Shown here one piece after another: positions 3,905 to 33,445 of a stretch of DNA of 50,354 nucleotides. Below the pieces are notes generated by a model that had not been told where the DNA came from, did no database searches, and worked only from the letters and a program-made list of their open reading frames with translations. This DNA is from Enterobacteria phage vB_EcoS_IME18, in the sequence record MH051911. One strand, written 5' to 3'. Numbering within the stretch: position 1 is the first letter of the stretch; every line of letters starts with the position of its first letter. The position numbers and the translations under genes were made by a program.

Positions 3905-5473
3905 TTACCGCTTAACCATCCCGGCGAGTCGCTTCATTCTCTCGATAGGATCATCAATGGTCAGCAATTCGATGTTCGCCGCATCCATGAAGTTATCGAC
4001 GATATCATCATGCGGGTGGGTGTCATCGTAAGTAAAGGCGCTGTGCTCAGCGATAATTTCAGCAAGCATAGGGTGCTCTTCTGGCAGAACCACACGCCCT
4101 GCTTTAATAACTGGCTGAGCATCCATAGCTCGGGTAACTTTGTCTTTGTTACGCTGCAATGGAGTGATGGATATCGGAGTCTTTTTCCTTAGGTTCTGGA
4201 TTAAGCCCGTACCGCTTGCTTTGTCTTCCACGTAGATTTTACGAAGCACGCCCATTGATTTATTGTGTCTCCATGCCTGATTCACGAAGGCGGTAAATTG
4301 TTTCTCCATATCCGGCGCTTCCCACTTACCGCGAATGCCGTCGATAAAGTAAACCTTGTCGTTTTTCTTACCCCACAAACAAAAGACTGTGTAGTCGTTT
4401 AGCTCACCTGTCTTCTGAGCGGTATCAGCGGTGATAAAACGGTAATCATATTTACCAGGATCTGGCTCGTCAGCGTCAAGGCTGCTTCCGTAATAAGTCC
4501 ACCACTCCGAGTTAAACACGGAGCCACCAAGCGCGATCGGCTTCTGTTGATACTGAGAATCAAAGGTGTACTGGTCCGCTTCGCGCAAAGCTAATAGGTC
4601 GTGCACACTTTCCTTGCTGGGCCAGAATGAATAATGCTTAACACCATCCAATTCTACATACTCAGACGACAAAACGTCGCGCTCGAAGTAAGGCTGCAAC
4701 CAGTCAGGAAGCGTCTTTCCGTATTCTTCCGTCACCAGCGCCGGGATTGAGATCTGGTCAAACTCAATACCCATCCCGCCATTCATCATGAACCATGTTG
4801 AATCCTGAGCGTGCAGTCTTTGCTGAATTGCAATAATAGGAGTCTCGTTATGCATACGACGAGATCGGATGGTGTTTTTCAATAGCATGTGCGTACGCTC
4901 ACGCTTAACCTTTGAGAACATATCATCAGGCTTGTCGATATCATCGAGCATTACCATCCCTGAGAATCCCGGCATCATGTATCCACCACGCGAACCTGTA
5001 ATTCGACCTCCAGCCGCAGCTGATATCAACTCAAACCAAACCTTTCCGTCTTCGTTAAGAACCTGCATCTCCTCGTCTTTCGATGTACCGAACTTGCAAG
5101 GCCATAGCTCTTGAAATTCGTTGCTGCTGATAATCTCACGGACGCGCTTACTGTTACGCTTAACCAAGCTGTCAGCAAACGACACGTTAAGGTTTCGCAC
5201 CTTCTTACACTTGAGCATTGCGTACACCGGAAGGTGAATTGAGAACACTTCAGTTTTACCGGAACCTGGCGTGACGTTAAAGATTGTATTCCCTCGCCGC
5301 CCTGCAATAATTTCCTCCACTTCGTGACATAGGTAAAGGTGATGCCAGTTAGGCTGGAACTGCTGCGCCTGCATAAGCTGGAACCAGATCCGAATCATTT
5401 TTTCGAAATTGGCCTCGCTCATTTTCTTGATCGCCAGCTTCTGTGTTGCGTTAAGGTCTTCCCATTGAATCAT
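3905..5473 (-). CDS. terminase large subunit
   Basis: 522 aa; P-loop-like TPGSGKT near N-terminus; SD AGGAGAA; gene order small terminase-large terminase-portal. Confidence 0.85.
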   Translation of the reverse strand: MIQWEDLNATQKLAIKKMSEANFEKMIRIWFQLMQAQQFQPNWHHLYLCHEVEEIIAGRRGNTIFNVTPGSGKTEVFSIHLPVYAMLKCKKVRNLNVSFADSLVKRNSKRVREIISSNEFQELWPCKFGTSKDEEMQVLNEDGKVWFELISAAAGGRITGSRGGYMMPGFSGMVMLDDIDKPDDMFSKVKRERTHMLLKNTIRSRRMHNETPIIAIQQRLHAQDSTWFMMNGGMGIEFDQISIPALVTEEYGKTLPDWLQPYFERDVLSSEYVELDGVKHYSFWPSKESVHDLLALREADQYTFDSQYQQKPIALGGSVFNSEWWTYYGSSLDADEPDPGKYDYRFITADTAQKTGELNDYTVFCLWGKKNDKVYFIDGIRGKWEAPDMEKQFTAFVNQAWRHNKSMGVLRKIYVEDKASGTGLIQNLRKKTPISITPLQRNKDKVTRAMDAQPVIKAGRVVLPEEHPMLAEIIAEHSAFTYDDTHPHDDIVDNFMDAANIELLTIDDPIERMKRLAGMVKR

Positions 5474-15816: not shown

Positions 15817-15831
15817 TAGCATTTTTTGCTA
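15817..15831 (+). promoter_or_regulatory. palindromic box (promoter-associated)
   Basis: TAGCATTTTTTGCTA with TATGGT-like hexamer about 22-23 nt downstream; upstream of 15895 gene. Confidence 0.45.
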
Positions 15832-15894
15832 ATGACTCGATCAGGTTGTCGGGGTATGGTTCTGGCCATCAACCAATCAGAAGAGGAAGCAGCA

Positions 15895-16512
15895 ATGAAG
15901 TTAATTTGGTCACTATTCGACGGTTCCGGTCTTGCGGGTCATGAACTGGCAAAGCAAGGTCACAAGGTGATGTGCTTCAACTTTGACGGAGCAGATCACG
16001 GAGATTACGCAAAGTACAATGCCCGGGTTGAGCATCCGAACATTGAGTATGTGAACGTGTTCATTGATGCAACGTTTGAGCGTGATGCGATCGCGGGTGT
16101 GTATGGCAAGCCGGATTTTATTATGGCCTTCCCTCCTTGCACTGACCTGGCTGTTAGTGGTGCTCGTCACTTTGCAAGCAAGCGTGAGCGCGATCCGTTA
16201 TTCCAGGAGAAAGCTGTTGCCACCGCTAGGATTGCTGCGAATATTGGCGACGCCCTGGGAGTGACTTACATCATTGAGAATCCGGTGAGCGTCCTGTCAT
16301 CTGCCTGGAGAAAACCAGATCACTCCTTCAATCCCTGGGAGTATGGCGGCTACCTTCCTGAGAATGACGCACATCCCTGGTTCCCGATGTATATTGCGCC
16401 GCGCGATGCTTACCCGAAGAAAACTTGTCTTTGGACCTCTGACGATTTTGTCATGCCAGAGAAAAAACCTGTAACCTGCCTGACGGGTACTCTGCACAGC
16501 ACAGCAAGCTAG
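15895..16512 (+). CDS. short C5-cytosine methyltransferase-like protein
   Basis: Start reassigned to ATG 15895 (SD AGAGGAAG); motif I-like LFDGSGLAG, PC motif FPPCTD, ENV-like IIENPVSV; only about 205 aa, no obvious target-recognition domain. Confidence 0.5.
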   Translation: MKLIWSLFDGSGLAGHELAKQGHKVMCFNFDGADHGDYAKYNARVEHPNIEYVNVFIDATFERDAIAGVYGKPDFIMAFPPCTDLAVSGARHFASKRERDPLFQEKAVATARIAANIGDALGVTYIIENPVSVLSSAWRKPDHSFNPWEYGGYLPENDAHPWFPMYIAPRDAYPKKTCLWTSDDFVMPEKKPVTCLTGTLHSTAS

Positions 16513-18238: not shown

Positions 18239-18463
18239 ATGAGCATTAAAGTTGAGAATATCATCAAGCGCTTGAACGCAAAAGGCCGTGTAGTTATCAA
18301 GATGGATAAGTCTTCCGGTTTTATTTCAATGACGGTAACTAAGACGCGTAACGGAAATAGCGTTATCGGAAGTGTACCGGGATCTCGACTGATAAATGCA
18401 ACAGATGCGGATGTTCGCGCAACGCTTGAGGCTAACTCGATTTACATTAATTCATGGAGCTAA
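18239..18463 (+). CDS. hypothetical protein
   Basis: 74-aa ORF with SD AAGGA. Confidence 0.5.
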   Translation: MSIKVENIIKRLNAKGRVVIKMDKSSGFISMTVTKTRNGNSVIGSVPGSRLINATDADVRATLEANSIYINSWS

Positions 18464-18466
18464 TTA

Positions 18467-18679
18467 ATGGAACAGGATAATTTCTGGACTCGTTATTTTG
18501 CAGCGCTCGATGCCGGGCTTGGTGCGGAATGGTGTATCAAGGTTGCATATAAAGAAATTACGCTTGACGACGCGCTAGGGAATATGGATATGGACGCAGA
18601 AAGTGAATATAATCCCGACTTCGAGATGCCAGGCGATGATACTGGTGATAATGACGACGACGATTATATTCCCTGGTAA
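18467..18679 (+). CDS. small acidic protein with SSB C-terminal-tail-like ending DDDDYIPW
   Basis: 70-aa ORF; C-terminus DDTGDNDDDDYIPW resembles the SSB tip DDDIPF present in this phage's own SSB (32260..32676). Confidence 0.5.
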   Translation: MEQDNFWTRYFAALDAGLGAEWCIKVAYKEITLDDALGNMDMDAESEYNPDFEMPGDDTGDNDDDDYIPW

Positions 18680-18695: not shown

Positions 18696-18759
18696 ATATT
18701 GCCGTAAGGTCATTTGATAAAGTGACCTTATTCAAGATAACCAATCAGGAGCTAACGCA

Positions 18760-19176
18760 ATGAAATCCATCAAACTTAAATGTACTTCAGCAGATAAAAT
18801 CACAGGATTTGAAGTAAACAACCTGTACAAAGGTCGTGAGCGCTATGATGGCACTCGCGAAGTAAAATTAAAATGCGGAAAGTATTTAAAACTTGAAAAG
18901 CATGATGAATTACAGATTCACGGATCTGATGAAATCTTCTTCGCGAAGTTCACTGAGTTGAAAACAAAGACGCTCAAGTGCACCGGGCTTGACCATCGCA
19001 ATCCGATGAAAAAATCATTCAAACTTGGCAAACGTTACCAGGTGGAAAGCGGTCGCGCTCTCGGCGGCGTAGCTGGTTATATTTTTGATGAGGACGGTTG
19101 CCGCTGGACCTTATTTCGAGAAGATGTTGGTTTTAGTATCGCGGACGGCACAACCTTTGAGGCCAAATACTTATAA
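18760..19176 (+). CDS. hypothetical protein (MKxxKLKCT family paralog)
   Basis: 138-aa ORF; N-terminus resembles 10145 and 12065 products. Confidence 0.5.
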   Translation: MKSIKLKCTSADKITGFEVNNLYKGRERYDGTREVKLKCGKYLKLEKHDELQIHGSDEIFFAKFTELKTKTLKCTGLDHRNPMKKSFKLGKRYQVESGRALGGVAGYIFDEDGCRWTLFREDVGFSIADGTTFEAKYL

Positions 19177-19180
19177 CCAA

Positions 19181-19195
19181 TAGCACTTTTTGCAA
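19181..19195 (+). promoter_or_regulatory. palindromic box (promoter-associated)
   Basis: TAGCACTTTTTGCAA; TATCAT 22 nt downstream. Confidence 0.55.
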
Positions 19196-19252
19196 AACGC
19201 GTGTACCATTGGCGGTGTATCATTTACACCGTCAACTAAGGAGTTTATTGTG

Positions 19253-20821
19253 ATGTTTAATATTAAGCCAAAACTGAATTACCAACAGATTATTGAGATC
19301 GCCAATAGCACTGGAGTTAATCCGGTGGCGATCGCAATTCGTGAAAACAGCTATGGTGACTCAGTTTCATTTTGGCAAGATCCGATCGATATCAATAACG
19401 GCAACGATAAGTTCCCTCTGATTTCGTTAGGTGGCGATAACCTGGTATTCGAATATGCAAAAGCAAAAGCTGAATCAGTCCAGTTCCCGGTTTCATCCGC
19501 GTATGCTCATTTTATCGGTTGCATCTCAGCCGCGATGCTCGGGAAGTTTTGGGTGCAATATCACGGAGAGGAACAGCCGACCGCGCTTTACATGGTAATC
19601 AGCCAGCCACCATCAACAGGTAAGTCCGCTATTAACTCAGCGGCGATAACTCCTATGCGTGCGGAGATTCAGCGACTGAATGAAGAGCGCAAAAAGGAAC
19701 GTATTCGTTTAACCAGTCAGCTACGCCAGGTTGAGAAGGAAATCAAGAATGATCCTAAAGGAAACACGACTGCGGCACTATACGAGGACAAAGAAAAACT
19801 GGAAGAGAAGATCAAAAAGATGGCTGATATTGTTTTTGCTGTATCAGATCCTACACCTGAAGGTCTTGCGAAAGTAGCCGCTGTTCAGGGCCACTTTTCC
19901 GTAATCTCTGATGAGGCAACGGCAATCAATACATTGCTCGGCCTGACTTATGGAGGTTCAGACAAGAAGTCAAACAGTGAACTTATCCTTAAGGCGTGGG
20001 ATAAAAACCACATGGAGGTAGCGCGTTCCAACCAGGACAACAACTTGTCTCTTTGCCCGGTTGGCTCGATCTGCGTAATTGCGCAGGATGAAACAATCAA
20101 AGGTATCATGGACGCAGGCCAACGAGGTATCGGTGTATCTGAGCGCTTCCTGTTAGTTCGCGAGGAACCGCTTTTAGGTACTCGTATTCTTTGTGATGAA
20201 AATGGTGATGCATTGTATAAAGAAGTCGATCGAGGACTGGTTAGCAAATATTACAGACTCGTTCACAACATCATGAAGGAGGAAAACGTTGTTCTCTCTG
20301 TAAGCCGTAATGCTATGCGTGAATTAAACCTTGCGCGTCAGGCGATGGAGCCGGATTTCGCCGCAGGTGGGAAATACTCTCACTCAATGCTACGCGGTCA
20401 TCTCGGCAAGTTCGATAAGCACGCCTTGCGTATTGCTTCAGTTCTCCACACGATCAAGAATTGGGATGGTGAATCACCGAACCGTTCCAACCGTGAGATT
20501 GACCTTGAAACAATGCAGGAAGCAATCATGATCTTCAATGAGCTTTCCAGGACTTATCTGTCGTCTGCCAGCGCTGCCGGGTATGCTGGTGATGAAGCTG
20601 AATCTCGCAAGCTGATTGATGTTATCACTGAGATCGCAAAGAAGAACAAAGGGCGCGCTCCGATTCATAGCATTGTTGCAAAGTGCCGTAACGTTACGCC
20701 GTTCAACGGTCAACAGAAAGTAGCTGAGCGAATCGATAGCCTGCTGATCACGCTCGAAGAGATGAACTACACTTGCCGCATTGATGATATTGTTTTCATC
20801 AATCCTCGACTGATGGGTTAA
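19253..20821 (+). CDS. putative replication-associated ATPase (P-loop-like), function uncertain
   Basis: Start reassigned to ATG 19253 (SD AAGGAG); 522 aa; deviant Walker-A-like QPPSTGKS. Confidence 0.45.
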   Translation: MFNIKPKLNYQQIIEIANSTGVNPVAIAIRENSYGDSVSFWQDPIDINNGNDKFPLISLGGDNLVFEYAKAKAESVQFPVSSAYAHFIGCISAAMLGKFWVQYHGEEQPTALYMVISQPPSTGKSAINSAAITPMRAEIQRLNEERKKERIRLTSQLRQVEKEIKNDPKGNTTAALYEDKEKLEEKIKKMADIVFAVSDPTPEGLAKVAAVQGHFSVISDEATAINTLLGLTYGGSDKKSNSELILKAWDKNHMEVARSNQDNNLSLCPVGSICVIAQDETIKGIMDAGQRGIGVSERFLLVREEPLLGTRILCDENGDALYKEVDRGLVSKYYRLVHNIMKEENVVLSVSRNAMRELNLARQAMEPDFAAGGKYSHSMLRGHLGKFDKHALRIASVLHTIKNWDGESPNRSNREIDLETMQEAIMIFNELSRTYLSSASAAGYAGDEAESRKLIDVITEIAKKNKGRAPIHSIVAKCRNVTPFNGQQKVAERIDSLLITLEEMNYTCRIDDIVFINPRLMG

Positions 20822-32723: not shown

Positions 32724-33371
32724 TTATTCGAAGTTGGTTATTGATTGAGATTGTACAGGTTTCGCGCTCGTTGCTTCAACCTGTTTTTTCTGTTCCGGCT
32801 GAGCCGGGCGAATGCCGCGAGCTTTTCCGATCTCAAACTTAGCCTTAAGTGCGTTGTAGTGATCCTGAATGATTGACTTGCTCGCCGTGTCCGTCTGTCG
32901 GTAAGCGTTGGCCCACACCTCTTTCAGTGATTCGATATCTTCACACGCATCAAGTTCTTTTTTCCAGTCCTTGACTGATTTCACCGCAAGCTGAGCGTCG
33001 TCATCACTCTGACTAATCCCCAGCGCCGCAGCGAGTGAGTAACGTCGCGCATAAGTCATCGCTGAGCCTACACCTTGAGGATCGCGTTTTGCAATCGGCA
33101 TCATCATGAAGAATTTGGCCCACTGCCCGGATTTGTGAATCAGCATAGTTTCAAGGTGGAAGGTCGTTTCCGTGCTTGTATCCAGCATTGATTGCAGGAT
33201 CATGATATCGTTGTCGGTTAGAGCCGGACTAACCGCTGCCATCATTGCGTCAAGAGTTGCGTATGAGTTTTTCAGGTGATTGTTTTTAGCGTCCTTCTTT
33301 GCTTTCGCGAATTTGTTGCGAGCATTAAACAGCGCCGGGAGGATTTCGTTGGTTTCTGGTGATAATTGCAT
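32724..33371 (-). CDS. ERF-family single-strand annealing protein
   Basis: Start reassigned to ATG 33369-33371 (SD AGGAGA); motif GSAMTYARRYSL typical of ERF. Confidence 0.7.
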   Translation of the reverse strand: MQLSPETNEILPALFNARNKFAKAKKDAKNNHLKNSYATLDAMMAAVSPALTDNDIMILQSMLDTSTETTFHLETMLIHKSGQWAKFFMMMPIAKRDPQGVGSAMTYARRYSLAAALGISQSDDDAQLAVKSVKDWKKELDACEDIESLKEVWANAYRQTDTASKSIIQDHYNALKAKFEIGKARGIRPAQPEQKKQVEATSAKPVQSQSITNFE

Positions 33372-33445
33372 TTTAACTTCTCCTGATTGGTTTATGAGGT
33401 GCATTATAACACCTCATTAGTTACTTGTTTAGCTATTTGTGCCGT

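Follow-up and report, generated by a model that had tools for sequence, protein, structure and literature searches.

The stretch of DNA analysed here (the window, 50,354 nt) is a complete T1-like genome (Tunavirus, Drexlerviridae), to which phage vB_EcoS_SH2 is 96% identical over the region tested. On its plus strand, at 18467..18679, lies a coding sequence with an ATG start and a TAA stop for a 70-aa acidic protein, MEQDNFWTRYFAALDAGLGAEWCIKVAYKEITLDDALGNMDMDAESEYNPDFEMPGDDTGDNDDDDYIPW, which we call the tip protein and whose C-terminus is DDDDYIPW. The original prediction of this ORF, including its length and its ending, was borne out exactly. Its acidic character also holds, with a net charge of -17 and a pI of ~4; residues 37-70 alone contribute -13. 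A Shine-Dalgarno-like GGAG can be read directly from the sequence 7 nt 5' of the ATG (18456..18459, plus strand). The stop codon of the preceding gene (18461-18463) ends only 3 nt 5' of the ATG, and this spacing suggests that translation of the tip gene is coupled to that of the upstream gene. The gene sits among small genes that form a block and are transcribed in the direction opposite to that of the structural genes, and the label of an early protein refers to this position only; a literature search on expression timing in Drexlerviridae gave nothing usable. Our own promoter scan marked a sigma-70-like site with 10/12 matches inside the coding sequence (18585..18613). The 80-nt gap 3' of the gene contains a 7-bp inverted repeat, AAGGTCA ... 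TGACCTT, with a 10-nt loop (18706..18729, plus strand), which lacks a T-run and is therefore not a canonical terminator.

The tip protein can be divided into three parts. Residues 1-46 (18467..18604, plus strand) form a conserved helical module, delineated by alignments, AlphaFold2 helices, a profile search and tblastn, with the consensus FWxRxxxAxDAGLxxEWxxKVAYxExTLxxALGxMDMDxES. Residues 47-66 (18605..18664, plus strand) form a hypervariable acidic linker, EYNPDFEMPGDDTGDNDDDD, modelled as coil and predicted to be disordered, and residues 67-70 (18665..18676, plus strand) form the YIPW-COOH tip, a putative docking motif resembling the C-terminus of bacterial SSB (SSB-Ct), with a Phi-P-aromatic sequence at a free C-terminus. 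AlphaFold2, run on a 43-sequence alignment, placed three short helices at residues 6-15, 20-27 and 33-36 (pLDDT ~76) and coil throughout after residue 37 (pLDDT ~56), so that the tail is predicted to be disordered. The tip protein had no significant match in Pfam or NCBIfam, and the family profile gave 0 matches at E<=10 against PDB sequences. A Foldseek comparison of the model with the PDB returned nothing with E<5, a fold comparison made uninformative by the whole-model pLDDT of 64. The protein matches PHROG 9085 over its full length (E 3.7e-45, residues 1-70 against profile positions 1-69 of 69), and its N-terminal module also matches PHROG 9323 and the middle of PHROG 4823; all of these are families of unknown function.

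The gene directly 5' of the tip gene (18239..18463, plus strand; PHROG 4344) encodes p74, a basic 74-aa protein with a pI of ~10. We examined 70 IMG/VR loci, all of them on ~50-kb Drexlerviridae-like contigs, and in ~67 of the 70 p74 lies 5' of the tip gene in the order p74, tip gene, (dcm), tandem-barrel protein, (small ORF), DUF3987 ATPase. The p74-to-DUF3987 gene order is identical in a remote metagenomic phage. In the genera other than Webervirus p74 is directly adjacent to the tip gene, and in Webervirus the gene directly 5' encodes a different basic protein, of 113 aa and Cys-rich. Measured in 44 loci, the distance from the upstream stop to the tip-gene start ranges from -11 to +18 nt and is mostly between -8 and +3. 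This arrangement suggests that p74 and the tip protein are a co-translated basic/acidic pair, and p74 is a candidate partner of the tip protein.

On the 3' side, a 138-aa protein (18760..19176, plus strand; PHROG 2684) occupies a conserved position in this synteny. It is confidently predicted to form two small SH3-like beta-barrels, with Gp54 of phage Bas11 as the closest solved structure, and is a second candidate partner of the tip protein. Gp54 of Bas11 is a CapRel trigger; a search of the small genes nearby for a sequence homolog of it found none. The conserved end of the syntenic block is a DUF3987/YfjI-like ATPase (19190..20821, plus strand; Pfam PF13148, E 3e-42; PHROG 2373 'DNA helicase'; also annotated in phage SA32RD), whose true start may be at 19253. 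A dcm-homologous methyltransferase gene (PHROG 757, without a Pfam match, 64% identical to Tls Dcm) lies directly 3' of the tip gene in most other Drexlerviridae and has been relocated ~2 kb upstream in Tunavirus (15826..16512, plus strand, in the window). Several homologs of the tip protein (in U136B, KingDDD, Motto and STSR3) are labelled 'putative cytosine DNA methylase' or 'Dcm'. We reject this label as a carry-over from the adjacent dcm, because the tip protein is always a separate ORF without a methyltransferase domain.

Elsewhere the window encodes an SF2 helicase, a primase, a RecE-like PDDEXK nuclease, an Erf protein and an SSB, together with a VRR-NUC nuclease, Dam and the Dcm-like methyltransferase. 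The curated record of phage Tls annotates no DNA polymerase, and T1-like phages therefore presumably use the host replisome and polymerase. The phage SSB (32260..32676, minus strand; PHROG 44 'single strand DNA binding protein') ends in ...STFDDDIPF and so does carry the DDDIPF-type tip that had been ascribed to it. Adjoining it is an Erf-family single-strand annealing protein (32724..33404, minus strand; Pfam ERF, E 1e-23; PHROG 155), a possible phage-encoded reader of SSB-type tips.

Conservation of the tip across a phage-only family

The tip protein belongs to an uncharacterised, phage-only family of three-part proteins (PHROG 9085/9323). A conserved helical module of ~45 aa (AGLNxEWxxKVAYxxxTLxxALGxMDMDxES) is followed by a hypervariable linker, which is either acidic or a CxC...CxxC knuckle, and by an almost invariant C-terminal [I/F/L/M/V]-P-[F/W]. 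Close homologs of the tip protein fall into 63 clusters. YIPW is present in at least 90% of 27 aligned close homologs, with a truncated protein (P0063) as the sole exception, and the acidic stretch preceding it differs in both sequence and length. By tblastn, 454 phage records, spread over the Drexlerviridae genera, match the N-terminal ~46 residues. The C-termini of these proteins are unlike that of Tunavirus upstream of the tip, yet they have the same ending, as in Tls (...DCGCNFDPSCKRCFPF), KOX1 (...SCGCTGEEGCRECIPFW), NBD2 (...CTCTIDAVCNNCINEIPF) and ESP2949-1 (...DCGCRGGDACCECMPF).

To extend the family, we searched 5.8 billion proteins with a profile and ran HMMER exhaustively over 1.84 billion cluster representatives. 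The distant short members found in this way have unrelated linkers and end in FDDGIPF, FMGIPF, DYDDFIPW, WGDEIPW, FDFDQLPF, FDNNHLPF or MEHVPF. Four of these endings (FDDGIPF, DYDDFIPW, FDFDQLPF and FDNNHLPF) are near-canonical SSB tips, phage SSBs ending in FDDDIPF (in the window) or DFDDDIPF. The tip is retained in 138 of the 144 short family members, and the six members without it comprise fragments, one read-through and three CxxC...CxC variants. Among the 132 members that end strictly in P-[F/W], all have Pro at -2 and F or W at -1, and 127 have I or F at -3. For 37 representatives sharing less than 70% identity, the core has a mean column identity of 0.56 and the three C-terminal residues one of 0.74, against 0.13-0.18 for the 16 residues that precede the tip. 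As these alignments present it, the architecture is one of a conserved head, a freely evolving linker and a fixed C-terminal tip, a layout that parallels the C-terminus of SSB. The initial description of a small protein bearing an SSB-type tip on an acidic flexible tail stands up to this comparison, the tip being found family-wide and the tail being predicted to be disordered.

The residues next to the tip are less uniform. In the majority of the family they are non-acidic (KRCFPF, RECIPF, KDEIPF) and belong to a Cys4 knuckle with K/R; an acidic run at this place is a peculiarity of Tunavirus and of several distant members (FDDGIPF, DYDDFIPW). The terminal residue in Tunavirus is W rather than F. 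In Webervirus (Klebsiella phages) one residue is added after the tip, giving CIPFW or CVPFL. Net charge varies by type as well, from -17 in Tunavirus to -8 in the Tls type and -6 in the NBD2 type.

An ending of this kind is rare. When all six-frame ORFs of at least 40 aa in the window were scanned for [ILVMFY]-P-[FW] ends, only the tip protein and the SSB were found (2 of 322 ORFs), and in the distantly related phage Tls 2 of 328 ORFs end in this way, the same two genes. The amino-acid composition of the window gives a chance frequency of ~5e-4 per protein, or ~0.04 per phage of 80 genes. By this count of endings the tip is beyond chance. Substitution rates in 14 distinct Tunavirus coding sequences gave a dN/dS of 0.09 for the core and of 0.17, the highest value, for the linker; the tip codons had changed only synonymously, with a dN of 0 despite a dS of 0.33. 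Judged by these rates, the tip gene is real and under purifying selection.

The gene is naturally broken in some phages. In SA32RD, codon 2 of the corresponding ORF (4469..4681, equivalent to 18467..18679 of the window) has changed from GAA to TAA (E2stop), a natural knockout, and further copies of the gene are truncated or frameshifted; one copy has a P->Q change in the tip. Given the knockout and the broken copies, the tip gene is, as read from the deposited genomes, accessory, phage-only and dispensable in nature. The SA32RD record has both a 'terminator' and a 'promoter', annotated by its depositors, within the dead ORF. Of 185,579 scanned genomes of bacteria and archaea, none was found to contain a relative of the family. 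About 20 records labelled 'Campylobacter phage' (host C. jejuni; for example MG065641, MG065636 and MG065681) carry the gene with ~60% identity over the module. T1-like phages of enterobacteria would not be expected under this name, and the isolates may have been mislabelled or be contaminants.

Head and tail can be found in other combinations. Two metagenomic mosaics join the Tunavirus tail ...DDDDYIPW to another module, one of the Webervirus type and one of the NBD2 type (P0082 and P0102, one each), which implies that head and tail recombine as cassettes. Because the tail cassettes swap between lineages in these proteins, it appears that the tail works independently of the lineage-specific N-terminus. 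Conversely, the helical module (here AGLNxEWxxKVAxGxxTLxxALGDMDMDxES) is also found inside longer proteins that have no tip, and therefore most likely has a function of its own, probably protein binding. Among these longer proteins are ~180-aa Ackermannviridae proteins of the PHROG 4823 type (253 phage records by tblastn), with the module in mid-protein, no Phi-P-F tip, and a conserved C-terminus ...PPLEVLMAGGWxxWEYQNEKNAWLDSR. Long module proteins of 133-181 aa include P0145, P0149, P0157 and P0159-P0162; another example is encoded by phage Maynard (NC_022768, 14476..15033). In P0151 and P0155 the module is combined with a zinc-finger-like CPAC...CPAC end and a precomputed Pfam match to PF26833 (Phage_Mu_gp6), and module proteins with such zinc fingers occur on Mu/myovirus-like contigs. 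The long tip-less variants are all hypothetical proteins, and their contexts gave no hint to the function of the module.

Candidate targets of the tip

Proteins that read the SSB-Ct do so through a hydrophobic pocket that takes the side chain of the C-terminal Phe, a basic residue that binds the alpha-carboxylate, and a basic ridge that binds the Asp residues; crystal structures resolve just the (D)IPF of the SSB-Ct (PMC3159472, PMC10143822). The features kept by the tip family match these determinants: a free C-terminus, a terminal aromatic residue, Pro at -2 and a hydrophobic residue at -3, to which Tunavirus and several distant members add the upstream acidic/aromatic signature. Because the conserved features of the family correspond to what SSB-Ct partners recognise, we favour the reading that the tip docks as an SSB-Ct does. 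The comparative evidence strengthens this reading and makes mimicry credible, with a host or a phage protein equally possible as the target.

Tentatively, we propose that the tip protein is a host-directed, DNA-free decoy or adaptor of the SSB interaction network. The protein would be soluble, a "tail without a DNA-binding body", and would not bind DNA itself. Its free C-terminal Y-I-P-W would imitate the I-P-F tip of SSB and dock into the SSB-Ct pockets of SSB-interacting proteins, the Asp/Glu run upstream of the tip would touch the basic ridge of these targets, and the N-terminal module would supply a second contact or a partner and thereby selectivity. One or more SSB-dependent enzymes might in this way be uncoupled from SSB-coated ssDNA, or redirected, while the phage's own SSB continued to work on DNA. 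The most plausible targets would be host nucleases and helicases that threaten the recombination and replication intermediates of the phage. The original prediction named exonuclease I, RecQ, PriA and uracil-DNA glycosylase (Ung) as examples of host SSB partners for which the protein could compete, in a takeover or anti-defence role. Pocket binding, the identity of the targets and an inhibitory outcome are all steps that we infer.

Several observations weigh against mimicry of SSB. Tunavirus ends in W where SSB has F, and in some phages the gene is naturally broken. The Cys4-knuckle majority of the family has no acidic residues by the tip, so that the general likeness to SSB comes down to the last three residues, and the extra residue in Webervirus shifts Pro-Phe relative to the carboxylate that SSB-Ct partners read. 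Moreover, the phage SSB carries the same host-type tip. Since it uses the same interface, and since the phage appears to rely on the host polymerase, an indiscriminate competitor would harm the phage; a competitor would have to be selective.

The original prediction knew of no described phage protein of this type, and the claim survives our literature searches, which turned up neither a natural protein that mimics the SSB-Ct or acts as its decoy, nor one that inhibits the SSB interface, nor a Drexlerviridae anti-defence small protein of this type. A more far-reaching form of the decoy proposal, possible though rather doubtful, is that the family represents the first case in nature of a protein inhibiting or hijacking the bacterial SSB hub, by means of a free "SSB tail" that plugs the pockets of selected host enzymes. 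The plugged enzymes would then be ones of host genome maintenance or defence, and the plug would be deployed by virulent T1-like phages and their Drexlerviridae relatives. Either the helical module or the co-translated p74 would give target selectivity, and the acidic and Zn-knuckle tails would be alternative scaffolds presenting one Phi-P-[F/W] warhead.

Against a target in the host, the synteny and coupling with other phage genes fit a phage-internal partner equally well. The tip protein could then be an adaptor, a "tail in trans" that regulates or recruits the replication and recombination proteins of the phage rather than inhibiting the host. Its tip might dock on a phage reader (Erf, the primase, the SF2 helicase or the DUF3987 ATPase), or the helical module might pair it with p74 to form an SSB-like hub. 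The gene order kept in ~67 of the 70 IMG/VR loci and in the remote metagenomic phage would fit such a role, as would the overlap or close apposition of the p74 stop and the tip-gene start, the opposite charges of the two products (pI ~10 and ~4), and the presence in the phage genome of its own SSB, Erf, RecE-like nuclease, primase and helicases. Annealing proteins of phages are known to recognise the SSB-Ct, an example being the C-terminal domain of Red-beta (PMC6393309). However, the gene can be lost, as the E2stop in SA32RD and the truncations elsewhere illustrate; Webervirus has the other, 113-aa protein directly 5' of it; and no SSB-Ct-binding domain is known in any of the neighbours. Tail-cassette swaps would also be easier if the target were a conserved host protein. 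We consider a phage-internal role unlikely.

More doubtful still is a target outside the SSB network, either the tandem SH3-like barrel protein or an unrelated host protein, in which case the likeness to SSB-Ct would be convergent. In favour of this, Pro-containing peptides are common ligands of the fold class to which the two predicted barrels of the adjacent 138-aa protein belong, acidic residues are missing beside the tip in the Cys4-knuckle relatives, and the IPFW and VPFL variants depart from a strict C-terminal register. Yet distant members have an extended SSB signature that goes beyond Phi-P-F (F-D-D-x-I-P-F or D-Y-D-D-F-I-P-W), the near-absolute need for a free C-terminus matches SSB-Ct recognition, and SH3-like domains are themselves documented as SSB-Ct sites (ExoI site B, PMC10143822). 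Since such sites are known, this alternative partly merges with mimicry of SSB. It is very improbable that the tip protein is a generic acidic nucleic-acid mimic of the Ocr, Gp5.9 or Arn type, with charge as the active feature and the tip incidental or kept for stability: many small acidic phage proteins are DNA mimics, and -17 in 70 aa at a pI of ~4 would suit one, but charge and linker are the least conserved features of the family (the net charge being only -6 in the NBD2 type and -8 in the Tls type), what is conserved is the uncharged tip and the helical module, and the acidic part is not predicted to adopt a rigid fold.

Two further readings of the C-terminus were tried and rejected. A beta-clamp-binding motif of the QL[SD]LF type does not fit, as Gln is absent from the common residues at -5/-6 (DDYIPW, KRCFPF, RECIPF, KDEIPF). 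A periplasmic C-terminal signal of the OMP/DegS type does not fit a protein that has no signal peptide and is, by inference, acidic and cytoplasmic.

Relation to known systems

About 17-20 bacterial genome-maintenance proteins dock on the SSB-Ct, which is an active antibacterial target (PMC10143822, PMC5872125). If a large set of E. coli, Klebsiella and Salmonella phages does carry a selective natural plug for this interface, it would reveal the SSB partner or partners that matter most to the phage. It would also provide evolved high-affinity scaffolds, in acidic and Cys4-knuckle designs, for inhibitor design, and would add the mimicry of a short linear motif of a host hub to the known phage takeover strategies. 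If the target is instead encoded by the phage, the family would exemplify a novel wiring of a phage replisome or recombination machinery.

Ocr, Gp5.9, Ugi and p56 are small, very acidic, non-essential proteins that neutralise host proteins of DNA metabolism by mimicry. These are DNA mimics with rigid folds, whereas the tip protein has a short linear C-terminal motif on a disordered tail; searches of Pfam, of the PDB by profile and with Foldseek found no relationship in sequence or fold to proteins of this type. What is proposed here is that a small acidic phage protein mimics a short linear motif of a hub, and not DNA. In phage T7, the SSB (gp2.5) and the helicase-primase (gp4) have acidic C-terminal tails with a terminal aromatic residue, and the gp4 tail, which competes for the same basic patches of T7 DNA polymerase, is a phage precedent for an SSB-like acidic tail on a protein other than SSB. 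The T7 tails are carried by large enzymes within the phage replisome, whereas the tip protein has 70 aa, no enzymatic domain and a motif of the bacterial IPF type. The PHROG 4823-type proteins of Ackermannviridae (~180 aa) differ from the tip protein in having no tip.

The closest likeness is to the SSB-Ct itself (...DFDDDIPF). Both have a free C-terminal Phi-Pro-aromatic sequence after acidic residues on a disordered linker, with Pro and the terminal aromatic as the constrained positions, and in the tip protein residues 37-70 are predicted as coil, with a net charge of -13, up to the terminal DDDDYIPW. The differences lie in the W that is terminal in Tunavirus, in the Cys4 knuckle of most relatives and in the extra residue after F in some. 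The body also differs from that of SSB, the tip protein having no OB-fold and no homology to SSB, and three short predicted helices in place of a beta-barrel. Synthetic SSB-Ct peptides and small-molecule mimetics have been developed as antibacterials; they share with the tip protein the proposed principle of filling the IPF pocket and disconnecting partners from SSB, and differ from it in being man-made (PMC10143822, PMC5872125).
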